Source: a virus
DNA length: 64,000 nt
IMG/VR virus record: IMGVR_UViG_3300029868_000018
Reading direction: 5' to 3' (one strand)
Below are positions 17,128 through 56,452 of the stretch, piece by piece (positions within the stretch are counted from its first letter, which is position 1; each line of letters opens with the position of its first letter). The notes under the pieces are model-generated. The model saw only the letters and a list, made by a program, of their open reading frames with translations, was not told the origin of the DNA and ran no database searches. The translations under genes were made by a program, and so were the position numbers.

Positions 17128-17361
17128 ATGGAAAGACCAAAACTACAAGACTTTAACAGCTATAAAAGCCCAAACACCAAGAAGCTTGCGCATACGCTTG
17201 CTATGGAGAATTACATCGATTATTTAGAAAAGCTACTTAAAGTCACCGAAGAAAATTTAGAAGACCAACACAGGGTTATCGATGAAATACCCGAATGTAA
17301 AACACATGGAAGGTGCATACCTCATGCTATTGATTGGATTAAAGATAAAAAACAGAAATAA
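17128..17361 (+). CDS. hypothetical protein
   Basis: 77-aa track ORF. Confidence 0.6.
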   Translation: MERPKLQDFNSYKSPNTKKLAHTLAMENYIDYLEKLLKVTEENLEDQHRVIDEIPECKTHGRCIPHAIDWIKDKKQK

Positions 17362-17801
17362 TGAAAAACACAATTATAGTTGATATTGACGGAACAATAT
17401 CTAAAGTAGGAGATAGATTAAAATATCTACAGCAAACCCCTAAAGATTGGGATGCTTTTTACAACGCTTGTTTTGAAGACGAGCCAATTCAGGAGGTTGT
17501 TGATATGGTTAAAAAGCTAGAATCTGATTATAAAATAGTTTTTTGCACAGGAAGACGAGAGAGTGTAAGGGGTGTTACTGAAAAGTGGCTAATAAAAAAC
17601 GGGTTGGAAAGCTTATCTCTTTTATTAATGCGTCCTGATGAAGACTACAGGCACGACACAATAGTTAAACCCGAACAATTAGAAAAGGCGGGGATCAAAC
17701 TTGAAGATATAGCCTTCGTATTAGAAGACCGCAATTCGATGGTTATTCAATGGAGAAAAATGGGATTAATTTGTATGCAAGTTGCAGACGGGGATTTTTA
17801 A
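17361..17801 (+). CDS. HAD-superfamily phosphatase (Pnkp-phosphatase-like)
   Basis: 146 aa. Motif I VDIDGTIS, motif II FCTGRRE, and a late acidic motif VLEDRNSMV. Confidence 0.65.
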   Translation: MKNTIIVDIDGTISKVGDRLKYLQQTPKDWDAFYNACFEDEPIQEVVDMVKKLESDYKIVFCTGRRESVRGVTEKWLIKNGLESLSLLLMRPDEDYRHDTIVKPEQLEKAGIKLEDIAFVLEDRNSMVIQWRKMGLICMQVADGDF

Positions 17802-17813
17802 AATAATAAAATT

Positions 17814-18740
17814 ATGAAAATATTTTTAGATACGGAATTTTTAGAAGGAACTCAAAAGACTAGAAAAGAGAAAACTTTAATAGCTATCATTTTAGGCTTT
17901 TGCGCAGGATTAGCCGTAGTGAGCTTTTTACAGAAACATTTTTTCGATTTCAGTTTTTTTGTTATCGCTTGGACTGTGTTTATGTATTTGTACGGAAAAG
18001 CTAAAGACAAAACCGCAAACACAATAGACTTAATCTCTATAGGTATTGTCTCGGAAGATGACAGAGAGTATTACGCTATTTCAAAAGACTTTAATTTAAA
18101 AGAAGCTTGGAATAGGTATCAATGGACTGAGGTTTCAGGCTCAATAACAAAACCAAAATTTAAAGAATATTGGATTAGAGAAAATGTATTAAGACCTATA
18201 TTCGAGGAATTTTTAGAAAAGGAACGTGCTTATGTATATAAGGCTCAAAATTTAGGTGTAGCTATTAGTGGCGAAGTTAAAGACAAGTTCACTTATAGAC
18301 GCTTTAAAAAACTTCTAAAGAAATACGGTAAAACCAATAAGGAAATAGCTAAAGAAATTGAAGAATTTGTTTATAATCCTGAAAGTGTTAGACCTATGGG
18401 GACAGAAGAACCGATTGAGTTCTACGCTTATTATGCCGATTATGATTGGGTTGTTTTTTGTTGGTTATTCGGCAAAATGATAGACCTTCCAAAAGGTTTC
18501 CCGATGTATTGTCGTGATCTAAAACAGATGCTTGATGAAGAAGCGGAAAATATGGTAAGAGGGTTTGCTATTGGAGATACCGACGAAGAAAAAGAAAGAA
18601 TGGTGAAAAGAAGTATTAAAGGGCAACTTAAATCGTTTAAGACTTTTGCAAAATTCCCGTTCAATGAAGGGAAACACAGCGCTATTCACGACGCGAGATG
18701 GGGTAAGAAATTATATGAATTTATAAATACTTTAAAGTGA
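17814..18740 (+). CDS. DEDDh 3'-5' exoribonuclease (Rv2179c-like) with an inserted hydrophobic hairpin
   Basis: 308 aa. IFLDTEFLEG .. IDLISIGIVSEDDREYYAIS .. IEFYAYYADYDWVVFCWLFG .. HSAIHDARW parallels the Rv2179c family. About 55 aa carrying two TM-like helices sit between the first two blocks. Confidence 0.7.
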   Translation: MKIFLDTEFLEGTQKTRKEKTLIAIILGFCAGLAVVSFLQKHFFDFSFFVIAWTVFMYLYGKAKDKTANTIDLISIGIVSEDDREYYAISKDFNLKEAWNRYQWTEVSGSITKPKFKEYWIRENVLRPIFEEFLEKERAYVYKAQNLGVAISGEVKDKFTYRRFKKLLKKYGKTNKEIAKEIEEFVYNPESVRPMGTEEPIEFYAYYADYDWVVFCWLFGKMIDLPKGFPMYCRDLKQMLDEEAENMVRGFAIGDTDEEKERMVKRSIKGQLKSFKTFAKFPFNEGKHSAIHDARWGKKLYEFINTLK

Positions 18741-18937: not shown

Positions 18938-19125
18938 TGGCTAAAATAACAGGAGAACCAACCGAAATACAAAAACTTGAATGGAAACTAAAAGCATTTA
19001 GAGACGCTTTACAATACTTGGTTGATACTAAGGAAAGAAAGGACACGATAGGTCAAGACTCTATTTACATGCAAAGGAAAAAATTTGGATGGATCAAAGC
19101 TAGAAATTTACTAAAAGAGGAATAA
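18937..19125 (+). CDS. hypothetical protein
   Basis: 62-aa track ORF. The ATG overlaps the upstream TAA. Confidence 0.55.
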   Translation: MAKITGEPTEIQKLEWKLKAFRDALQYLVDTKERKDTIGQDSIYMQRKKFGWIKARNLLKEE

Positions 19126-19502
19126 TGGGAGCGAATAAAACACCTTTAATCGATTTAATGAATGCCGATTTAAAGCATTACGAAGAAGCTAGTTCGGCAA
19201 TATCTCATTCTAGTAGTAGTATTCCAAAGGCGATAACAGAATATTGGAAAAAGAGAATTGAAAATGAAGGCATCTATGAATATGAGCAAATAAAAGAATC
19301 TTGTAAAAAAAAGATATTTGTTCAATGCCCTACAGGAATAATTAATTATATAGACAAGGAAGGAAATATAACTCATTCAGAGAAATATCCGAAAAATGAC
19401 GATGTGATTGCCCCGATATTCTTTAAAGACCAAAACGGCAGAATGACGGAGATGTTTAATATAGATTGGGAGAAAATAGATAAAGACTCAAAAAATAAAT
19501 AA
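19125..19502 (+). CDS. hypothetical protein
   Basis: 125-aa track ORF. Confidence 0.65.
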   Translation: MGANKTPLIDLMNADLKHYEEASSAISHSSSSIPKAITEYWKKRIENEGIYEYEQIKESCKKKIFVQCPTGIINYIDKEGNITHSEKYPKNDDVIAPIFFKDQNGRMTEMFNIDWEKIDKDSKNK

Positions 19503-20416: not shown

Positions 20417-20566
20417 TTATTTTTTAAACACTTTCAATAGTTTACGGGGGATTTTCCAATAAGCCCCAATTTGAGCCATTAAAATTAATCCATATACCGT
20501 AAGGGCCAAAAATGACGTGAAAACAATCCAAAACATTATTCCAATTACTGCTGATATATATTTCAT
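20417..20566 (-). CDS. 49-aa membrane protein not in the track
   Basis: Minus-strand ATG at 20566 to TAA at 20417: MKYISAVIGIMFWIVFTSFLALTVYGLILMAQIGAYWKIPRKLLKVFKK. Confidence 0.5.
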   Translation of the reverse strand: MKYISAVIGIMFWIVFTSFLALTVYGLILMAQIGAYWKIPRKLLKVFKK

Positions 20567-20568
20567 AT

Positions 20569-21102
20569 CTAGTTTTTATTTTTGTTTTCAGGGAACATAT
20601 AGTTTAACATATTTTCTTTTACTCTATTAGACACTTCCTTACCCATAGCATCCATTTTTCTTTTCGCTTCTTCTCTAGTTAATAACTCAGGTATAGGAGC
20701 TTCCTCAATTTGTTGAATCCAACCTTTTGTCCCTGCAAAATTAGGTTTTTCTTTTTCAGTTCGTTTGTCTAAAAGCCAAGAATGGTGTCCAAAATCATAA
20801 TGTCCGATTTCGTCCATAAGAAAATGAGGATCACATTTCATGCCGTCATAGGAAGAATTTTTAATAGGCTCCCAATCCATTACATCAAACTCACAGTCGA
20901 ATAAATTACAGGTGATGTAAACGTTGAAACTAACTTCAGCTTTATCGGCTTCTGAAGCGTTTTCCCAAAGAATACTTTTAGCGAAATATAAGTCTATTAT
21001 TTCTTTAGGAGTAATCTCAGGTAGCTTGTTGACTTCTAAAATCACTATGTTAGGCTCAAAACTGTAGACAAGGCCTATTATTGCGTCGTAGTAAAAATTC
21101 AT
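20569..21102 (-). CDS. hypothetical protein
   Basis: The track ORF begins at TTG 21111. The first ATG, at 21102, gives 177 aa. Confidence 0.65.
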   Translation of the reverse strand: MNFYYDAIIGLVYSFEPNIVILEVNKLPEITPKEIIDLYFAKSILWENASEADKAEVSFNVYITCNLFDCEFDVMDWEPIKNSSYDGMKCDPHFLMDEIGHYDFGHHSWLLDKRTEKEKPNFAGTKGWIQQIEEAPIPELLTREEAKRKMDAMGKEVSNRVKENMLNYMFPENKNKN

Positions 21103-21103
21103 A

Positions 21104-21283
21104 TTATTCAAGTATTTCTTTCAAATCCTTTTCCAATTTAGTTTCGTCTTCCATAGTATTATTATAGAGTTCAGGTTCGTGTTTTTCAAGGCAGGGCTCA
21201 CACCACCAAATACCATCTACGCCCGTTTCATTTACTCGCTGTAACGGCTGTCCGTTTGAAACTTTACATTTATTACATTCCAT
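21104..21283 (-). CDS. 59-aa zinc-ribbon protein not in the track
   Basis: MECNKCKVSNGQ..WWCEPCLEKH (CxxC..CxxC). Packed exactly between its neighbours. Confidence 0.55.
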   Translation of the reverse strand: MECNKCKVSNGQPLQRVNETGVDGIWWCEPCLEKHEPELYNNTMEDETKLEKDLKEILE

Positions 21284-21285
21284 AA

Positions 21286-22020
21286 TTATATAATTCGTTC
21301 GCGTTTTCTGTTTTTGAAATTGTAAACCTTTTCTATGTTATAGATATAGTCTTTAGCGGTTCCTTGCTTATCCATTATATTCGGGGCTTGAGAAATCTTA
21401 GTTTTAAGAACTTCAAGGTCTATTTTTCCAATTTTTATAAGCTTTTGCATTGCAACAAGAAGTCTTGAATGACTGTAAAACTTATATCTTCCGAAAATAT
21501 CTTTTACGGTTTCGGCTAAATCGACAGTTTCTTTAAGAAATCTTACCTTAAATTCTCCATCTCTAAAGAACTCCATACCGCCCTGCTTACTATCTATTTT
21601 TCCGAACATTAAAAAATCTACAGCGCAAGAATAAACTAGATTATGAGCTTGCATAGTTTCAAGTAGTGTCACGTAATCCTCAACACCAACACTTACATAA
21701 CAAGCTATGAAATCGCGGTTACTCCATTTATCGCTACGAGAATTCAATCTAGCTATTTGACGTAAATTTAAAACATCACATACAATATAATGAACGGGAT
21801 GATTTAGTAATTTAGAAACCTCGAAACGGTGTTGGCCGTCAATTATTTTAAACAATCCGTTTTGACTGTAAACTATTATAGGACAATACGGTAATAAATT
21901 AAGGCCCGCCTCAATGTCTTTTGTTAGCTTTTTAACTTTTATTTCGTTGATAATTCGATTACCTAAAATACTCTCGAATTTAGAATAATCTGATGTTTGG
22001 TTAATTAGTTGTGTTTTCAT
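21286..22020 (-). CDS. ParB N-terminal-domain (DGQHR motif) protein
   Basis: 244 aa. CPIIVY..FKIIDGQHRFEVSK is the ParB/sulfiredoxin-fold DGQHR signature. Confidence 0.7.
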   Translation of the reverse strand: MKTQLINQTSDYSKFESILGNRIINEIKVKKLTKDIEAGLNLLPYCPIIVYSQNGLFKIIDGQHRFEVSKLLNHPVHYIVCDVLNLRQIARLNSRSDKWSNRDFIACYVSVGVEDYVTLLETMQAHNLVYSCAVDFLMFGKIDSKQGGMEFFRDGEFKVRFLKETVDLAETVKDIFGRYKFYSHSRLLVAMQKLIKIGKIDLEVLKTKISQAPNIMDKQGTAKDYIYNIEKVYNFKNRKRERII

Positions 22021-22031
22021 TTCTAAGTTTT

Positions 22032-22111
22032 AAAAAAGCCGAGTCCTCTTGGTTATCAATTTCTCACAAAAAAAGAACAAGTCCGCGAAGGTTCACGGCA
22101 CAGGACTCGGC
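22032..22111 (-). promoter_or_regulatory. structured leader or small RNA ending in a terminator-like hairpin plus U6
   Basis: Perfect 10-bp stem GCCGAGUCCU/AGGACUCGGC (22102..22111 with 22038..22047) encloses 54 nt containing an inner hairpin. U6 follows, and the ATG at 22020 is 11 nt further. Confidence 0.5.
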
Positions 22112-22129
22112 ATTCCATTATTTCTATTG

Positions 22130-22137
22130 CAAATGTA
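22130..22137 (-). promoter_or_regulatory. -7 promoter box TACATTTG
   Basis: The minus strand reads TTG-N20-TACATTTG, about 18 nt upstream of the 10-bp stem. Confidence 0.5.
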
Positions 22138-22179
22138 GTTACAAATAACATACAAAGCAAGAGTTACTTGATTTAATCC

Positions 22180-22545
22180 TCAAAACCATTCCTTGTATTT
22201 ATCTAAAAACTCTTGTGAAACGAAAAGCGGGTGTGAGTGAGCGACCATACAAAGCAAATTTACAGGACAATCTTTTCCAAGCTCCTTTTCTTTATCGAGC
22301 AGGTGTTTTATATTTTCTTTAATCGTTTTCTCTCTTTCAAGTCGTCGCTCTTTATCTTTGTCGGCCCAATCAGTTAACATATCGTTAAGTTCTTTTTCTG
22401 TAGGCATTTTACCGTAAGCGACGGGAGGATTGCATTTCTCGTTATGTTTGAAAAAGCTAAACATTCCGCTAGGATATTCTTTCCCGCATTTATCGCAAGC
22501 GATGACTCCTATTTTAATTTCTTTTGTTGGATCCTGTTTCTCCAT
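22180..22545 (-). CDS. hypothetical protein with an N-terminal zinc-finger-like motif
   Basis: 121 aa, with CDKCGKEY..HNEKC. Confidence 0.65.
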   Translation of the reverse strand: MEKQDPTKEIKIGVIACDKCGKEYPSGMFSFFKHNEKCNPPVAYGKMPTEKELNDMLTDWADKDKERRLEREKTIKENIKHLLDKEKELGKDCPVNLLCMVAHSHPLFVSQEFLDKYKEWF

Positions 22546-22547
22546 AA

Positions 22548-22838
22548 TTAATCCCTGTTTGGGTTTGCTTTAACCATTTTAAGTTGTTCTTCATTATACC
22601 AAGCGCTTTTTTCAGGTATTCCTTTAATCGAATATTTAATTTGCCCCTGCGTTTCGGTTACTTTATCAACAACCCCCTTTTTTCCTACTACACCGCTATT
22701 CATATCGTGCCATATAATATCTCCCTCCTTATGTATAATAGGAAAGTTTGTTTTCATTTCTGAGTCTTTAGCTAACCAAAAAAGGTGTCCATATCCCACA
22801 ACTTTAACCTTATCTCCAATTACAAATTTGTTTTCCAT
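22548..22838 (-). CDS. hypothetical protein (SH3/KOW-like small beta protein guess)
   Basis: 96-aa track ORF, with GDKVKVVGYGH.. and GKKGVVDKV. Confidence 0.6.
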   Translation of the reverse strand: MENKFVIGDKVKVVGYGHLFWLAKDSEMKTNFPIIHKEGDIIWHDMNSGVVGKKGVVDKVTETQGQIKYSIKGIPEKSAWYNEEQLKMVKANPNRD

Positions 22839-22853
22839 ATCGCTTTAATTTAT

Positions 22854-22867
22854 CCGTTTACAAACGG
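22854..22867. promoter_or_regulatory. inverted-repeat 14-mer CCGTTT-nn-AAACGG (putative regulator site)
   Basis: The minus strand reads CCGTTTGTAAACGG. The same 14-mer, with at most one mismatch, occurs at 24617, 24637 and 25404. Confidence 0.45.
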
Positions 22868-22874
22868 CTATTTA

Positions 22875-23123
22875 TTATAATGGTTCCCCGATTTTAAGGT
22901 AACACTTACCGAAATGATCTGAATCAGGTTCAACAAATTGGTTATTCCTAAAGTCACTAAACTCCCAACCATCACCATCATCATAATCGTTAAGGATTGG
23001 TGTTTTGAACTCAACACTACCGTAGCTTTCGTATGCTCCCGCCTGTTGTTGTATTCCAAATTCAATTATCGTGTCTTCAGGGAACCTATTAAGCCATTCC
23101 TGTAAATCTTTTCTAGTAGCCAT
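22875..23123 (-). CDS. hypothetical protein
   Basis: 82-aa track ORF. Preferred over the overlapping alternative frame 22868..23065. Confidence 0.6.
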   Translation of the reverse strand: MATRKDLQEWLNRFPEDTIIEFGIQQQAGAYESYGSVEFKTPILNDYDDGDGWEFSDFRNNQFVEPDSDHFGKCYLKIGEPL

Positions 23124-23125
23124 GT

Positions 23126-23260
23126 CTATTTTTTTGATTTAATTTCTCCGTCACGCTTTACAGTAACGTTCATTAACGTATGCAGTTTCATCCAAGTCAT
23201 TTGTGTCTGATCCATTAAGTCTTTCATTTCCTGTATTTGCGCCTCGCTTAAACCTTGCAT
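23126..23260 (-). CDS. 44-aa ORF (trimmed from track ORF 23126..23392)
   Basis: The internal ATG at 23260 (MQGLSEAQIQEMKDL..) avoids overlap with 23271..23567. Confidence 0.4.
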   Translation of the reverse strand: MQGLSEAQIQEMKDLMDQTQMTWMKLHTLMNVTVKRDGEIKSKK

Positions 23261-23270
23261 AATTAATGTT

Positions 23271-23567
23271 TTAATTTCCTCTATAAGCAATGTTCCTCCA
23301 ATGGTTGTTTTTCTTTGTAAGTTTAACCGCAAACCTAGCCCAATTCTGAGGACTAACGTTAAACATTCCGAAGTGTATTCTGCCATAACCACGCCTACAC
23401 GCTCTTAAGCAAGCGTTTTCGTAGCTAGTGGCTAATACCGTAATGTAATCGCTTTGCCTGAAACCTTCTTTATCAAATCCAAGAAACTCTCCAAACAACC
23501 CTTTAGTAACCTCTACGTCATACCAATCAGACTTTTCACGTAACTTTTTAAAATATTTAGCTTTCAT
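23271..23567 (-). CDS. hypothetical protein
   Basis: 98-aa track ORF. Its ATG lies 12 nt after the U-tract of the upstream RNA gene. Confidence 0.6.
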   Translation of the reverse strand: MKAKYFKKLREKSDWYDVEVTKGLFGEFLGFDKEGFRQSDYITVLATSYENACLRACRRGYGRIHFGMFNVSPQNWARFAVKLTKKNNHWRNIAYRGN

Positions 23568-23578
23568 ATTTAAGAATT

Positions 23579-23834
23579 AAAAAAGGGGAGTGGCTTACGC
23601 CTGTCGTTTCTCCCCGTAACGTTCTACGCCACCGCTCTAAGCTGTGGAGTAAAAAGGTTTATAACTTTTACAGTTATGGTTAAATGATTCTCGGTAATGC
23701 TTCCTTATGCTGTCAAATCCAAGCGACCCCAAGAGGGAGTAACTAGCTCCCCACACTTTCTAAACTTAGTGGAGTCGGAGGGAGTCGAACCCTCGTCCAA
23801 ACATATTTATTCAAAACGTCAACAAATCATTAAG
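23579..23834 (-). ncRNA. ssrA: circularly permuted (two-piece) tmRNA-like gene
   Basis: On the minus strand, GGAC-GAGGG-UUCGACU-CCCUC-CGACUCC-A (23798..23770) precedes GGGGUCGCUUGGAUUUGACAGC (23730..23709). They form a 7-bp acceptor stem with G3:U70. Inter-piece helices are AGCAUA/UAUGUU and AAUCAUU/AAUGAUU. The terminator is GGGGAG..CUCCCC followed by U6. Confidence 0.75.
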
Positions 23835-23837
23835 CGA

Positions 23838-23867
23838 CAAAGATAGTAAATACATTGTAACTACAAA
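23838..23867 (-). promoter_or_regulatory. promoter TTTG-N18-TATCTTTG of the tmRNA-like gene
   Basis: The minus strand reads TTTG (23867..23864), an 18-nt spacer, then TATCTTTG (23845..23838). The first inter-piece helix starts 7 nt downstream. Confidence 0.55.
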
Positions 23868-23868
23868 A

Positions 23869-24270
23869 CTATTCCTTGTCTAAAACAACATTTTTTATTT
23901 TATAGATATATCTTTCATTGAAAATATAGTAATTGTAACCTACAGGTATTAATATCTCAAGCTCTTTAAAGACCGCCATTGCTTTATAAAATTGGTTGCG
24001 CCCAATAATATCTTTATGCTTTTCATAACTCACAAAGGATCCTCCTGACTTGACATAGCTATCGGTTCTGTTTACACCATTGACAATGTTATGAAGCAAT
24101 CTACCGTCAACTCCATAGAAATCGGTGACAAACATTCTAAGCATTGTAGTCGAATAAGGTCGATATTGATTGGCGCTATACCCCCAATACTCAACGGAAT
24201 TGTTGTAGTAAACCTTTTTATATCTAGGAATCCAATACTTATCAACGATATGTAATAACCTTTTGTCCAT
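23869..24270 (-). CDS. hypothetical protein (first gene of the leftward operon)
   Basis: 133-aa track ORF. Confidence 0.65.
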   Translation of the reverse strand: MDKRLLHIVDKYWIPRYKKVYYNNSVEYWGYSANQYRPYSTTMLRMFVTDFYGVDGRLLHNIVNGVNRTDSYVKSGGSFVSYEKHKDIIGRNQFYKAMAVFKELEILIPVGYNYYIFNERYIYKIKNVVLDKE

Positions 24271-24335
24271 AAAAAAAAGACCTCTAAATAAAAAAAGCAG
24301 TGCATCTACTCACTACTTAAATTAAAAAGAGGTCT
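24271..24335 (-). promoter_or_regulatory. leader hairpin plus U7 abutting the start codon (attenuator/terminator-like)
   Basis: Minus strand: AGACCUCU (24335..24328), a 42-nt loop, AGAGGUCU (24285..24278), then U7 directly followed by AUG at 24270. Confidence 0.45.
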
Positions 24336-24377
24336 AATAATTTCTTTCATTGTTTTAAGTAGATGACAACAACGTTT

Positions 24378-24408
24378 CAAAGATAAAGCTTATAAATGGC
24401 ATTACAAA
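24378..24408 (-). promoter_or_regulatory. consensus leftward promoter TTTG-N19-TATCTTTG
   Basis: The minus strand reads TTTGTAATGCCATTTATAAGCTTTATCTTTG. It lies about 100 nt upstream of the ATG at 24270. Confidence 0.65.
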
Positions 24409-24411
24409 ACG

Positions 24412-24478
24412 TGAGAGTACCCTAAAGAGGTACTGTGGTGTTTTATCCAAACCTGAGAGTACCTTAAAGAGGTACAGT
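24412..24478. repeat. two copies of a 25-nt palindromic element (operator-like)
   Basis: TGAGAGTACCCTAAAGAGGTACTGT (24412..24436) and TGAGAGTACCTTAAAGAGGTACAGT (24454..24478). Arms are AGTACC/GGTACT, the period is 42 bp, and the first copy abuts the -33 box of the leftward promoter. Confidence 0.6.
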
Positions 24479-24587
24479 ACCCAATTCGGGATGCGCCCAT
24501 ATACAGCATACAACGACAGCGTTTTTTAAGCCAAAATAAAAATAATCCTATTACGTAGTATACGGAAAAGCAAGATTAGGCAAACAA

Positions 24588-24603
24588 ACTAACGCTCGTT
24601 AGT
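24588..24603. promoter_or_regulatory. 16-nt palindrome ACTAACG-CT-CGTTAGT
   Basis: 7-bp inverted arms with a 2-nt centre. More likely a protein-binding site than an RNA hairpin. Confidence 0.35.
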
Positions 24604-24612
24604 CTACAACAT

Positions 24613-24650
24613 TTATCCATTTGTAAACGGCTATATCCATTTGTAAACGG
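24613..24650. repeat. tandem 20-bp repeat, each unit a DnaA-box-like TTATCCA/ATATCCA plus CCATTTGTAAACGG
   Basis: TATCCATTTGTAAACGG occurs at 24614..24630 and again at 24634..24650. Confidence 0.7.
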
Positions 24651-25086
24651 GTAATAATTCATTTAAAGCGTTGTAAGCGTTTTTATACTGCTACGGCATA
24701 ATGTATTGATTCATTTGCAAAACGTTCAGAAATGATAACATCTGATTACGTGAGCGTATAAACTTACAGTTACTTGGAGCCACGAATACAAACGCTATTT
24801 ACAAATTGTTCGACTACTTATATGTTACGGCTTAGGGTAGGGGTATGGACGTCTTTGGCGCTGAGGGTATTCGCTTTCTCGCAATGGGGTGGGGTCGGTT
24901 TTGGTTTGCGGTTGCGAAAGTTTTTGAACTTTTTAAGCTCGTCGCGGTTGAGGTATCGAATTAACCTAATGTACTGTGAATGCTTGTTTTATAACGCCTG
25001 ACAATCGCGTATTTGTAAATGGTGCGGGGTATTATACTAATACGTAAACGTCACGCGGTTAATATCCTGCTGTTATGCGTTAACCG

Positions 25087-25284
25087 TTTGCAATGAGGTA
25101 AACGTTTACAATTGTATTGGTCAGATCTTCGCGCGCTCTTGCATTGCGTTATACTATTGCGTGACAACGTGAACACTCAGCGCAACGAATTACAACGCGT
25201 TCAACGGTTCAGGGGACAACGTGACCACTTCACGCGATTGAATGACAGAGAGTGACGGAAAACCTTTGCAATGTGAACGTTTAC
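25087..25284. repeat. cluster of dispersed direct repeats in the G+C-richer core of the non-coding region
   Basis: TTTGCAATG-N(2-5)-AACGTTTAC twice (25087..25109, 25265..25284). GACAACGTGAmCACT twice (25163, 25215). CAACG five times (25165-25221). Palindrome GTAAACGTTTAC at 25098..25109. Confidence 0.6.
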
Positions 25285-25328
25285 GCACGTTTGCACCACC
25301 AAAGCGCGGGTATCTTTAACTCTTTAAA

Positions 25329-25410
25329 TCGTTTGTCGTTTGGTGTTTGTTCGTTTGGTGTTTCGTTTGTAGTCTTGAATTGTTATGTGTTATTCGTTTG
25401 TAGTCGTTTG
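25329..25410. repeat. iteron-like cluster, TCGTTTG x6
   Basis: TCGTTTG at 25329, 25336, 25351, 25363, 25394 and 25404. Nested repeats TCGTTTGGTGTTT x2 and TTCGTTTGTAGTC x2. Confidence 0.7.
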
Positions 25411-25639
25411 TAAACGGTTAAGTGTTAGGTGTGTAGTTCGTCGGGTTTATGTTTGTTGTACTATAAATATGCGTTTTTGTAGTAGATTGTTGAGTGATTT
25501 AGTTGTTTAGTTTGTTGTATCGTTTCTTGTATTGCTTGTTAAGTGTTGTTGTCATTGGGTTGCAGGTCATTATATTTTTATTGCTTTTATTAGTTGTATA
25601 TACAGTTAAAGAGTTATCTTAGTACTATAATTAATTAAC

Positions 25640-25776
25640 GCTCTTATAAATATTTTGTTTCGAGATTTCAGCAAGCCAAACCGCACCGAGTAACTAGATA
25701 CGGACATAGACACTAGCAAAAGGGTATAGGAGGGTAAAAAAAGACTGTTATTAGTATAAGCATTATTTATAAGAGC
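25640..25776. repeat. perfect 13-nt inverted repeat bracketing the early-operon leader
   Basis: GCTCTTATAAATA (25640..25652) and TATTTATAAGAGC (25764..25776). The right arm ends 14 nt before the ATG at 25791. Confidence 0.6.
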
Positions 25777-25790
25777 ATAAAAAAAACATT

Positions 25791-55072: not shown

Positions 55073-56452
55073 ATGGCAATTACTGGCCCAACAAACCCCC
55101 ACAATAACAGACCTCCTTTGTTACTAACACAGGACAATTATGTCGATCCTTATACTGTAACAGGATCCGCAGGAATACCACAATCGGTATATGACACAAT
55201 ACAGAATGATTGTCTTTTGATGATGAAAGATGATGTAATGGGATTCTTAGACGAATTCTCAATGACCAAATCATTTGTAACTAATACTGTTGAGTATGTA
55301 GAAACTACAACTAGAGATAATGTAATTGATGATGACGGAGCGGTAACAAGAACAGGAGATGTTTTTACAATTGACTGGACAGCCGTTGAAGGTTATGACG
55401 CATCACAAGAACATTTCACTTATAAAGTAGACACTACTATTTTCGTAGTAGATGGAACTAAAATGGAACAGGGTGTTATTACTGCCGTAGATATAGGAGC
55501 AGCAACAATAACTGCAAAATGTGCTAATGGCGCGTCTTGGACTATTGCAACATCTGTACTTACGTTAGGAACTATTGGAGGTGACTTTGATAGAGGTAGT
55601 TGTGGCCCTGAAGGGACTCTTGAAAACAGAAAAACAACTAATCGTTTTGTAAAACTTGCAACTACTAGAGTTGCTATGCAGAGTAATGGCGGAGAAAGAT
55701 ATGCTTGGTTGTATAACGGAGCTTGGCAATGGTACGATGACAATACGAAACGTGTAAGAAAATTACTAAACTCGGAAGTTGCGAAGAAACTTTTAATTAG
55801 TATTCAAAGTGCTGATTCTTCAGGAGCGCATGCTATTGGAAAATACGGAACCGAAGGATTGTTTGAGAATATTAGAGCAAACGGAGCCGTACAATCAGGA
55901 TATATTACGGATTTAGCAGGAATGCAAGCTGTAACTGATTATTGGGATGAACTTGGAATGACAGAAAAAGTTTTCTTAGCGAAAGTTGATAAAACACAAT
56001 ACCGTCACTTTGAGCAAATCGCAAAAGAAGTTATGTCTAATTTAGGAGCTATAACCAATGTTGATGTAAATAACAACAGCGAAAACTTTGCTAAGTTTGG
56101 ATATAATACTCTTGAGGTAGATGGTTATACCATTCACTTCGCTAAATGGGGATTAACTGAAGGAAACAGCCCGTTTGGTAAAGCTAGAATTATAGATGTA
56201 TTCCCTAAAGGTGTTATTATCCCAATGGGTTCTACAATGACTAAGATCAACGGAATAGAACAAAGTACGCCTTATATCTTTAAAGCGTATCAAGTATTCC
56301 CTGAGCATAATCAAAACGGAATGGTTAGAGAAGTGATTACAGGAGCATTTGCCCCGACCCCAACTAACGATTGCGAGTATGAAAAACTAACCTTGTCTAC
56401 GACTACAGGAATAATTATTCCTTGTCCTGAGCCATTGGTTATAATAGATTAA
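55073..56452 (+). CDS. putative major capsid protein
   Basis: 459 aa. Follows the scaffold-like gene and is followed by the strongest intrinsic terminator in the window. No homology check was possible. Confidence 0.5.
   Translation: MAITGPTNPHNNRPPLLLTQDNYVDPYTVTGSAGIPQSVYDTIQNDCLLMMKDDVMGFLDEFSMTKSFVTNTVEYVETTTRDNVIDDDGAVTRTGDVFTIDWTAVEGYDASQEHFTYKVDTTIFVVDGTKMEQGVITAVDIGAATITAKCANGASWTIATSVLTLGTIGGDFDRGSCGPEGTLENRKTTNRFVKLATTRVAMQSNGGERYAWLYNGAWQWYDDNTKRVRKLLNSEVAKKLLISIQSADSSGAHAIGKYGTEGLFENIRANGAVQSGYITDLAGMQAVTDYWDELGMTEKVFLAKVDKTQYRHFEQIAKEVMSNLGAITNVDVNNNSENFAKFGYNTLEVDGYTIHFAKWGLTEGNSPFGKARIIDVFPKGVIIPMGSTMTKINGIEQSTPYIFKAYQVFPEHNQNGMVREVITGAFAPTPTNDCEYEKLTLSTTTGIIIPCPEPLVIID

Follow-up and report, generated by a model that had tools for sequence, protein, structure and literature searches.

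The window, the whole 64,000-nucleotide stretch of viral DNA analysed here, very probably carries on its minus strand a working phage tmRNA gene of the two-piece (circularly permuted) type; tmRNA rescues ribosomes that have stalled. The acceptor piece, which represents the 3' half, is encoded first, at 23770..23832, with support from ARAGORN, the Rfam alignment and covariation. It would be about 63 nt long before the post-transcriptional addition of CCA, with a 5' end predicted from the position of the promoter. The piece contains the 5' strand of helix P2b (AAUGAUUU, 23824..23831), which pairs with 23690-23683 in the co-fold, the precursor fold and a motif-anchored test, and continues with a GUUGACG motif (23817..23823) in the internal loop of helix 2, which reads [G/A]UUGAY in most family members. 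The 5' strand of helix P2a, (U)AUGUUUG, lies at 23798..23805 according to RNAalifold and pair counts, and is followed by GGAC and the T-arm (23798..23778), the T-arm itself being GAGGG-UUCGACU-CCCUC at 23778..23794. The 3' acceptor strand CGACUCC (23777..23771), recognised by sequence and covariation, and the discriminator A (23770) complete the piece. CCA is not encoded after the discriminator, where the genome has CUA.

A 39-nt spacer (23731..23769), which would be lost on maturation, separates the acceptor piece from the coding piece. It holds a hairpin, GGGGAG-CUAGUUA-CUCCCU (23752..23734), seen in both the sequence and the fold. Among the relatives the spacer varies from 18 to 238 nt and its sequence is not conserved. 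The coding piece, which represents the 5' half, extends over about 152 nt (23579..23730) from the predicted RNase P site at G23730 to the terminator, as placed by ARAGORN and Rfam. It starts with the 5' acceptor strand GGGGUCG (23724..23730), all seven nucleotides of which pair, followed by CUUGGAUUUGACAGC. The D-loop analogue CUUGGAUUUGA (23713..23723) has uGGnUUUGA in 24 of 24 aligned sequences and leads into no anticodon arm. Together with a T-arm of the GGUUCGAnUCC type, these features make up the tRNA-like domain of a tmRNA. The 3' strands of P2a (CAGCAU, 23707..23712; Rfam alignment and covariation) and P2b (GAAUCAUU, 23683..23690; pairing test and sequence) come next, so that helix 2, which links the tRNA-like and mRNA-like domains, is formed here between the two pieces. 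The tag reading frame (23624..23671) opens at a GUA resume codon (23671-23669), encodes VKVINLFTPQLRAVA with the hydrophobic C-terminus RAVA, and ends at an in-frame UAG (23626-23624); U(-5)A(-4), which sets the frame, is at 23676-23675. A helix-5-like hairpin, GGGGAG / AAACGACA-GGC-GUAA-GCC-A / CUCCCC followed by U6 (23579..23615), appears in the precursor fold and is a putative intrinsic terminator. Relatives likewise have a hairpin after the tag, with an RCGAMA-like loop, and then a U-run or a tRNA. Because the hairpin has an internal loop, a simple terminator scan found no site at the locus; such scans, like those for sigma-70 promoters, are unsuited to it. On recomputation, every sequence element named in a preliminary description of this DNA, including the spacer hairpin and the terminator hairpin with its U6 tail, was found in its place on the minus strand.

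A putative Bacteroidota-type promoter lies upstream at 23838..23867, with TTTG at -33 (23867-23864), an 18-nt spacer and TATCTTTG at -7 (23845-23838), and transcription is predicted to start at about 23833-23831. A TAnnTTT[G/A] box occurs at the equivalent position in five relatives (L035, L073, L056, L145 and L146). The motif described earlier as a dedicated promoter is thus present, but its full form shows no enrichment there (5 occurrences in the window against 3.2 expected), and therefore we infer the promoter from its position alone. Small ORFs on the same strand flank the gene on both sides, but its description as part of a phage operon is loose, since the promoter-like and terminator elements make it apparently a unit of its own. 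No Pfam or PHROG family was found for these flanking ORFs. There is no SmpB, integrase or Clp/Lon domain among the 137 ORFs of the window, although the phage genome is probably larger and may carry SmpB or integrase genes elsewhere, and no tRNA gene lies in the window. Therefore, the alanyl-tRNA synthetase (AlaRS), SmpB, RNase P and CCA-adding enzyme of the host would be needed. The phage is related to phages of Flavobacteriaceae; it is Gundel_1/Panino-like, of marine type, and its host probably belongs to this family. Megablast of window positions 20-40 kb against phage genomes gave no match, and so no near-identical phage is available.

The two-piece reading is based on two independent detectors, ARAGORN and Rfam, on covariation in relatives and on conservation of the tag, all of which support, for a phage of Bacteroidota, the two-piece form with 3' half before 5' half proposed in the preliminary description. 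The permuted tmRNA called by ARAGORN spans 23533-23859 on the minus strand and has the tag VKVINLFTPQLRAVA. Its 3' limit of 23533 goes too far, and the gene most likely ends at about 23579, at the terminator. The Rfam permuted tmRNA model (RF04321) is matched over its full length, 1-213, with 54.1 bits, the gathering score being 47; the E-value of 9e-8 refers to a search of the whole 64-kb window with all 4227 Rfam families, and the locus searched alone scores 56 bits. None of the alphaproteobacterial, betaproteobacterial and cyanobacterial models that had been suggested as checks (RF01849, RF01850 and RF01851) is reached by the locus, all remaining below 38.4 bits at a permissive threshold. 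The best clan match at that threshold is the standard model RF00023, which aligns over the 3' half only and gives 38.4 bits where the cut-off is 47. For comparison, a viral gene of the beta type (L013) scores 90.9 bits with the beta model, the cut-off of which is 84 bits. The Rfam search found no riboswitch.

The acceptor stem is formed in trans by CGACUCC (23777-23771) and GGGGUCG (23730-23724), with seven base pairs including the predicted G3:U70 wobble (G23728:U23773), which is kept in 24 of 24 relatives. With A73 (A23770) as the discriminator, the RNA has the alanine identity elements. The covariation proposed as a check is seen in the acceptor stem, the T-stem, P2a and P2b. In 24 related permuted genes, gathered by a pattern that fixes part of P2a and the T-arm, 98.8% of the alignment cells of the acceptor stem, T-stem and P2a are paired, as compared with 85.5% after shuffling, and none of 500 shuffles attains the paired fraction of the real alignment. 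Compensatory changes on both sides of a pair number 52 cells as against 12.4 in the shuffles, and sliding the register leaves at most 66% paired. The acceptor stem is 100% paired in the relatives and four of its seven pairs covary; the 5' acceptor strand of the relatives was first found through this complementarity, yet it always lies 2-4 nt before the conserved uGGnUUUGAC. The T-stem is also 100% paired in 24 sequences, with two covarying pairs (AU/CG/GC/UA and GC/AU). The pattern GGGGNNGNTTGGATTTGACAGC matched no viral contig.

Both inter-piece helices seen in the preliminary description, AGCAUA with UAUGUU and AAUCAUU with AAUGAUU, correspond to P2a and P2b. RNAalifold favours a register of the 6-bp P2a with one bulged U, and the outermost pair of this helix covaries (UA in 10 sequences, CG in 5, AU in 4, UG in 2 and GU in 1). 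P2b (23831-23825 with 23689-23683) gains one extra G-U pair to reach 8 bp. In a position-restricted test with anchors set in each sequence by the motif alone, P2b forms in 12 of 17 cognate combinations but in only 17 of 272 (6.2%) non-cognate ones (p=1.6e-11). The duplex energy of cognate and non-cognate pieces over long windows is nearly uninformative (p=0.04; the window gene ranks 21/23), because AT-rich segments pair promiscuously, and the precursor as a whole folds with unremarkable energy (z=-1.1).

Three candidate tag frames had been left side by side in the preliminary description. The frame ending in PQLRAVA-UAG is retained; those ending in YSTA and GEKRQA are rejected, since the VKVI frame alone is conserved in relatives. 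The resume codon falls at positions 57-68 of the coding piece in 22 of 23 members, and at position 86 in the remaining one, L053. U(-5)A(-4) is kept in 21 of 23 members and A(-4) in all 23, in agreement with the frame-setting element U85/A86 of E. coli (PMC2481249). Kindred tags are encoded by L076, L043, L126, L104, L081, L142 and the Panino gene, and close pairs of tags differ mostly by synonymous changes. To judge from these comparisons, the tag evolves as a translated sequence would. It is unrelated to the host-type tag GENNYALAA.

Pseudoknot PK1, which in tmRNAs typically lies between helix 2 and the tag, is lacking in the window gene: only 11 nt (UAACCAUAACU) lie between P2b and the resume codon, leaving no room for it, and no pseudoknot-forming complement is seen. 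Two-piece tmRNAs have fewer pseudoknots, and PK1 is typical rather than strictly defining, but in E. coli it is required for tagging unless replaced by a hairpin (PMC3968760). Therefore, the activity of the window RNA cannot be assumed from model organisms.

Permuted tmRNA genes are already known in phages, including those of Bacteroidota, contrary to the novelty first claimed for the locus, and the range of known kinds of system is unchanged. Fifty-three unique permuted tmRNAs have been reported in phage genomes, with two-piece forms in Melnitz and pelagiphages, and Table S1 of the same study lists as permuted those of Cellulophaga phage phi4:1 and crAssphages cr115_1, cr114_1, cr10_1, cr50_1 and cr273_1 (PMC9004378). 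Homologues in Maribacter phage Panino and Chryseobacterium phage MA9V-3, labelled 'SsrA' in GenBank, are permuted according to ARAGORN and Rfam. The closest homologue in a cultured phage is that of Panino, a phage of a flavobacterium, in which the gene (PP540027, 27557-27889) is annotated 'transfer-messenger RNA SsrA'; its permuted state is not mentioned in the paper on this phage (PMC11590407). It is 79.7% identical by blastn over the 5' domain, is called permuted by ARAGORN and scores 62.2 bits with RF04321, and it shares with the window gene the 39-nt spacer length, the P2a/P2b plan, the unencoded CCA and a tag, GKVMNVSFAPTVRQFA, that can be aligned with VKVINLFTPQLRAVA. In contrast, the Panino gene lies within an array of 20 tRNAs and is followed by tRNA-Thr where the window gene has a terminator, its resume codon is GGU instead of GUA, and Panino has an integrase (PMC11590407) whereas none was found in the 64 kb of the window.

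The crAss-like phages of Suoliviridae (cr125_1, cr114_1, cr10_1, cr60_1 and cr50_1), which also infect Bacteroidota, encode the acceptor piece first as well. They have in common with the window gene the UGUUUGGAC...GGUUCGA core, the 5' domain UUUGACAGCA, AUAACU|GG before the resume codon and the unencoded CCA. Their spacers are much longer, 76-166 nt as against 39 nt, the pairing 5' strand of cr125_1 lying 166 nt downstream and the spacer of cr114_1 holding a tRNA-His. Their tags are of another kind (GNFYVTDYTRIAA and the like) and are followed by roughly 100 nt of additional structure with a tRNA-like element at its end, and several members score near or below the Rfam cut-off (40-51 bits). 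In Melnitz, a phage of OM43, and in the pelagimyophages, which are lytic marine phages lacking an integrase, a permuted ssrA also lies behind an early promoter, but the Melnitz gene is of the alphaproteobacterial lineage and is associated with a glutamine riboswitch (PMC9004378), whereas the window gene reaches none of the lineage models and no riboswitch was found.

The two-piece tmRNAs of bacteria (RF01849 alpha, RF01850 beta and RF01851 cyano, with RF04321 as the merged model of the tRNA domain) have the same permuted order, and that of Caulobacter is experimentally functional according to a passage in PMC3968760 citing Keiler et al. 2000. In them the tRNA-processing enzymes produce two base-paired RNAs, as is predicted for the window gene, and they have fewer pseudoknots than one-piece forms, none being detectable in the window. 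Their tags also have a hydrophobic or Ala-containing end, but those of the window and its relatives start with V or G, are basic and are not ANDE-like. The window gene differs further in its unencoded CCA, its failure to match the lineage models and a host phylum, Bacteroidota, that uses one-piece tmRNAs, 24380 standard against 48 permuted having been counted there (PMC11915505, Supplementary Table 2). The one-piece Bacteroidota tmRNAs L039 (tag GENNYALAA) and L148 (Chitinophagaceae, GNTTYAMAA) share with the window gene UUUGACAGCA, AUAACU|GG before the resume codon and the unencoded CCA, and about 25 of the first 28 nt of L148 are identical by eye. Their RNA is about 390-400 nt long in the standard order, as compared with about 218 nt in permuted order, and host-type tags are short, with an acidic or polar character, whereas that of the window is basic.

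We infer as follows where the transcript starts and ends, how it is processed and charged, that it uses host SmpB and what the phage gains from it. A single transcript of about 255 nt would start near 23832 at the Bacteroidota-type promoter and end at the hairpin and U6 at 23579. Host RNase P would cleave just before G23730, the acceptor piece would be trimmed to A23770 by a 3' processing activity of the host and the host CCA-adding enzyme would add CCA, yielding a pair of RNAs, about 66 and 152 nt long, joined by the 7-bp acceptor stem, the 6-bp P2a and the 8-bp P2b. Host AlaRS would charge the 3' end with alanine through G3:U70, and host SmpB and EF-Tu would bring the RNA to ribosomes that have stalled at the ends of broken mRNAs. 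There, translation would restart at the GUA at 23671, set by U(-5)A(-4), add A-VKVINLFTPQLRAVA and end at UAG, freeing the ribosome and marking the peptide with a hydrophobic, degron-like C-terminus. The likely benefit is that ribosome recycling would be kept up during degradation of host mRNA or under host defences that cleave RNA, and the phage-specific tag may alter the fate of tagged proteins.

An improbable alternative is that tagging is irrelevant and that the tmRNA-like RNA acts as a decoy, binding host SmpB or stalled ribosomes so as to block or replace host trans-translation. Such a role has been proposed for the gene of mycobacteriophage DS6A, which has the tRNA-like domain only (PMC4131195, PMC11915505), and it would suit an RNA without any pseudoknot that, with no SmpB encoded by the phage in the window, has to contend with host tmRNA for that of the host. 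The frame of the tag, its length, stop codon, U(-5)A(-4) and hydrophobic C-terminus are all conserved, however, and the mainly synonymous differences between close relatives would be unexpected for an unused coding part. Still less probable is an attP-type remnant, in which the T-arm and acceptor strand are a host tmRNA or tRNA fragment for integration and the coding piece is a chance or decaying capture. Passages in PMC9004378 and PMC4383910 describe tmRNA genes as common integration sites that leave displaced fragments in prophages, many viral-contig matches to the 3'-end pattern are host-type standard tmRNAs at contig ends, and positions 23806-23766 share 85% identity with the 3' end of a tmRNA from Chitinophagaceae. 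Such a fragment would comprise the 3' part only, beside an integrase; instead both halves are present, their acceptor strands covary across relatives, P2b and the non-host tag are conserved, and no integrase domain occurs in the 64 kb. A dual role as attP and working gene is compatible with the present data. That AT-rich phage sequence merely resembles a tRNA-like domain by chance is hardly credible, even though the Rfam score exceeds the cut-off by only 7 bits and database curation rejected some candidate tmRNA calls after manual review (PMC11915505), since two independent methods concur, covariation far exceeds the shuffle and slide controls and the same architecture is shared by homologues from three cultured phages and from 20 or more distinct viral contigs.

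The functional two-piece tmRNA favoured here comprises a tRNA-like domain, helix 2, a tag and helix 5, which add up to about 218 nt. What may be new is this architecture of about 66 + 152 nt without a pseudoknot, combined with a basic tag and Bacteroidota-type hallmarks. Because of these hallmarks, there is the possibility, which we regard as rather doubtful, that the genes form a separate phage-borne two-piece lineage, arising from at least one permutation of a Bacteroidota one-piece tmRNA independent of the alpha, beta, cyanobacterial and mitochondrial events, reduced to a pseudoknot-free minimum and with its own family of basic tags ([G/V]K[V/I][I/V]N..PQL[R/K]A[A/V]A). Identity over 27 nt, at 14-23 of 27, does not discriminate Bacteroidota one-piece tmRNAs from other lineages, and so an independent origin is put forward as a hypothesis.

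The window gene is a cleanly delimited and unusually small example among phage two-piece tmRNAs, from a group of phages that infect hosts with the one-piece RNA. As a minimal natural tmRNA free of pseudoknots, it would be a handy test of the real requirements of trans-translation. About 20 related viral genes with defined helices and tags could seed a dedicated covariance model, which is worthwhile because several crAss-like members score near the threshold of existing models or under it. The sequence of the tag offers a handle for mass spectrometry on why phages carry tmRNA. If the separate lineage is real, the phage would not just be adding rescue capacity but would be giving rescued proteins a fate of its own choosing.

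ARAGORN calls a permuted tmRNA with the tag VKVINLFTPQLRAVA at 23533-23859 on the minus strand as the sole RNA gene of the whole 64-kb window, and RF04321 (tmRNA_permuted), matched over the full model with a score of 54.1 bits (E=9e-8; cut-off 47), is the sole Rfam family over its gathering score in the window. The preliminary description had proposed a two-piece tmRNA and named both searches as checks; the tmRNA gene is real and that interpretation is correct. When coordinates were recomputed from the sequence, every element that it had listed on the minus strand between 23867 and 23579 was found in its place. The promoter-like TTTG-N18-TATCTTTG (23867-23838) is followed on this strand by the P2b 5' strand AAUGAUUU (23831-23824), a GUUGACG motif (23823-23817), (U)AUGUUUG-GAC (23805-23795), the T-arm GAGGG-UUCGACU-CCCUC (23794-23778), the 3' acceptor strand CGACUCC (23777-23771) and the discriminator A (23770), P2a and P2b being the two parts of helix 2 formed between the pieces. 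Beyond a 39-nt spacer with a hairpin (23769-23731), the coding piece consists of the 5' acceptor strand GGGGUCG (23730-23724), the D-loop analogue CUUGGAUUUGA (23723-23713), the P2a 3' strand CAGCAU (23712-23707), the P2b 3' strand GAAUCAUU (23690-23683), a reading frame of 15 codons (23671-23624) and a composite hairpin that runs into U6 (23615-23579).

When IMG/VR was scanned with the conserved P2a/T-arm junction, >120 loci were returned, and ARAGORN, run on all collected loci, called ~35 permuted genes, 29 of them non-redundant. In each permuted gene where it could be located, first by complementarity, a perfectly complementary 5' strand lies 18 to 238 nt downstream of the 3' acceptor strand and 2-4 nt before the conserved uGGnUUUGAC motif; the pairing 5' strand was not located in one locus (L065). 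The acceptor strands change together between relatives, the 3'/5' combinations being CACCUCC with GGGGGUG, AUGCUCC with GGGGCAU, CAUCUCC with GGGGAUG, CGGCUCC with GGGGCCG, CGCCUCC with GGGGGCG, CAGCUCC with GGGGCUG, CGACUCC with GGGGUCG and UAGGUCC with GGGCCUA. RNAalifold predicts the T-stem, the trans acceptor stem and P2a unprompted from an alignment of 24 relatives (A3) in which the spacer was masked. Pair counting on A3 gives 98.8% paired cells vs 85.5% in shuffles (0/500 shuffles reach 98.8%), every slid register leaves <=66% paired, and 52 cells are changed on both sides vs 12.4 in shuffles. Two caveats apply: some of P2a and three pairs of the T-stem were already set by the search pattern, and complementarity served to locate the 5' strand in the first place; the positions that covary are the free ones. 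G3:U70 is kept in 24/24. Acceptor-stem complementarity is kept in these 24 sequences with both strands co-changing, as the proposal of a two-piece RNA had led one to look for in related phage genomes.

The inter-piece helix AAUGAUU/AAUCAUU (P2b), also part of that proposal, has a different sequence in every relative, and a first test on long segments was uninformative. In a retest, the motif alone set the 5' strand (the 6 nt immediately 5' of [G/A]UUGAY), and coding-piece positions 40-46 held a fully complementary strand in 12/17 cognate vs 17/272 non-cognate pairs (p=1.6e-11). P2b thus covaries, indicating that three helices hold the pieces together: the 7-bp acceptor stem, the 6-bp P2a and P2b, which has 8 bp in the window. 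The internal loop between P2a and P2b carries the conserved GUUGAY ([G/A]UUGAY) on the acceptor piece (23823-23817 in the window), faced on the coding piece by an AAGAG-like, purine-rich motif (~23696-23691), at the same places in the relatives of A3. Pairing offers no obvious explanation for this conservation, and the loop may serve in protein binding or tertiary contacts. Since P2b is only 11 nt away from the resume codon, there is no room for PK1, the pseudoknot between helix 2 and the tag. A single hairpin follows the stop codon, and the window tmRNA appears to be without any pseudoknot.

After the tag, relatives form a hairpin whose loop is RCGAMA-like; next comes a U-run in the window, L035, L104, L071, L076 and Chryseobacterium phage MA9V-3, or a tRNA gene in Maribacter phage Panino, L048, L142, L126 and crAss-like phages. 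The window hairpin was missed by a simple terminator scan; the fold does show it, with an internal loop and a GGC-GUAA-GCC insert, then U6. CCA is not encoded in the window gene (A-CUA), nor in most relatives, nor in the host-type Bacteroidota one-piece genes; proteobacterial-type permuted genes in the same scan encode it. The dedicated promoter is putative, and its evidence weaker: a -33/-7 motif that fits the Bacteroidota promoter consensus is present upstream, and L035, L073, L056, L145 and L146 have its -7 box in the corresponding position, but across the window the whole motif occurs about as often as chance predicts (5 vs 3.2 expected). A second match, TTTG-N17-TATGTTTG, lies within the acceptor piece (23826-23798, minus strand); as the conserved P2a strand UAUGUUUG serves as its '-7 box', the tmRNA consensus probably produces this match by coincidence.

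The resume codon falls at coding-piece position 57-68 in 22/23 distinct members and at position 86 in L053, a proteobacterial-type gene. U(-5)A(-4) stands before it in 21/23 and A(-4) in 23/23, the same arrangement as that of U85/A86, which determines the frame in E. coli (PMC2481249). The tags are VKVINLFTPQLRAVA in the window, VKVIQMNTTPLRMAV in L076/L145 (read by homology), VKVIQMNFSPLRMAV in L146/L147, GKVINLFGNDVKVAA in L043, GKVINLFGNTVQAAA in L126, GKIIKMTTPQLKAAA in L104, GKTVNIFGYEAKVAA in L081, DNVYQLGGVQLRAVA in L142 and GKVMNVSFAPTVRQFA in Panino. For L076/L145 (IMG/VR 3300007542_002733; Ga0208795_1000302), ARAGORN gives ERNQNNSFLGATENVKVIQSLIMP, which is implausible and in the wrong frame, homology and the U(-5)A(-4) rule giving VKVIQMNTTPLRMAV; therefore, automatic tag calls in this lineage can be wrong. 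Codon changes are 4 synonymous vs 3 non-synonymous both in L043/L126 and in L142/L048, and the last two tag codons differ between L076 and L146 by GCA to GCT and GTA to GTC. Such largely synonymous differences between close pairs have the appearance of translated sequence, which argues against the RNA being a pure SmpB decoy. Since the tag varies among relatives in this way, the homologous tags settle the choice among the three candidate frames in favour of ..PQLRAVA-UAG, and ..YSTA and GEKRQA are set aside.

GenBank holds no near-identical phage. Tenacibaculum phage Gundel_1 (Pachyviridae) has a counterpart, at 47% identity, of the virion protein at 55073-56452, to which proteins of the Cellulophaga phi18:3-like phages and of Panino are more distantly related; tail, Erf, NinG, ParB-like and crAss muzzle-type domains are recognised in further ORFs, and G+C is ~33%. 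This relationship to flavobacterial phages makes a host among the Flavobacteriaceae (Bacteroidota) very probable. Gundel_1 carries ten tRNAs and no tmRNA (PMC8776804), whereas the window carries a tmRNA and no tRNA. No SmpB, integrase, Clp or Lon domain was found among the 137 window ORFs at E<=1e-3, nor a known family for the small ORFs on both sides of the tmRNA gene. A stand-alone PNKP-type HAD phosphatase (17361-17798, plus strand; PF25109, E=1.3e-28) adjoins a gene with an Rv2179c-like 3'-5' exoribonuclease domain (17814-18737, plus strand; E=3.5e-6); located ~5 kb from the tmRNA, the two may repair or trim RNA ends. Among protein genes, only the phosphatase is common to the window and L147 (58-65% amino acid identity), a contig carrying the most closely related tmRNA lineage. 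A nearby Ribonuclease 2-5A match (19125-19499, plus strand; E=0.0012, 19.4 bits vs cut-off 23.3) may well be chance. The tmRNA gene belongs to a leftward block (20417-24513), which is separated from rightward early-looking genes by ~1.3 kb almost without ORFs (24514-25790); because Gundel_1 has direct terminal repeats at the equivalent place, this may be a genome end or regulatory region.

The idea that a permuted tmRNA was new to phages or to Bacteroidota does not hold. The paper on phage Melnitz counts 53 unique permuted tmRNAs among phage genomes, and its Table S1 lists Cellulophaga phage phi4:1 and crAssphages cr115_1, cr114_1, cr10_1, cr50_1 and cr273_1 as permuted (PMC9004378); SsrA annotated in GenBank for Panino, MA9V-3 and several crAss-like phages was confirmed as permuted. 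Cellulophaga phages Calle_1 and phi14:2, in contrast, have the standard form; the Panino and Calle papers only name a 'tmRNA'. The one-piece form prevails overwhelmingly in Bacteroidota genomes, with 24380 standard vs 48 permuted genes (PMC11915505). The window gene is one more phage two-piece tmRNA, not a first.

The window gene does not reach the alpha, beta or cyano tmRNA models; its best clan match is the standard model over the 3' half (38.4 bits), and UUUGACAGCA, AUAACU|GG and the missing CCA are common to it and Bacteroidota one-piece tmRNAs, suggesting an independent permutation in phages of Bacteroidota. Among bacterial genomes, the 5' pattern of the window gene matches solely a one-piece tmRNA of Chitinophagaceae; short-sequence identity ranking does not decide the question. 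Four IMG/VR contigs (L050, L143, L106, L066) have standard-order viral tmRNAs with very long tags, e.g. ANVELSTWTFEDAMAFAEGELEMAA, and the acceptor stem in the first three is GGGGCAU paired with AUGCUCC or AUGUUCC. Since the 5' domain of standard-order L143 nearly matches that of permuted crAss-like tmRNAs, there is a hint that the permutation happened within a phage lineage. In cr114_1 (L024), a complete tRNA-His gene (1544-1616) occupies the spacer between the pieces, so tRNA processing would release both tmRNA ends. In crAss-like phages a RAGATH-9 RNA, scoring up to 155 bits, lies directly before the permuted tmRNA, and Hatchet ribozymes and a RAGATH-20 RNA lie nearby in a dense structured-RNA cluster (L002 2788-2956 and 1429-1557; also L006, L007, L014, L024, L025 and L026).

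The observed gene order, helices and tag are best read as those of a two-piece but otherwise ordinary trans-translation RNA. By established tmRNA biology (reviewed in PMC3968760), on which every biochemical step is modelled, a single transcript would cover both pieces, RNase P would cut at 23730, and the 3' end would be trimmed to 23770 and receive CCA. G3:U70 would lead to alanylation, host SmpB and EF-Tu would deliver the RNA, translation would resume at GUA, and A-VKVINLFTPQLRAVA would be added before release at UAG. Specialists may be interested in the predicted absence of all pseudoknots, in the small size, in a tag family specific to phages and in an origin that may be independent. The leading idea is that the phage benefits because ribosomes would be kept recycling when infection or host RNA-cleaving defences break mRNAs, and tagged proteins may meet a different fate through the divergent, basic tag.
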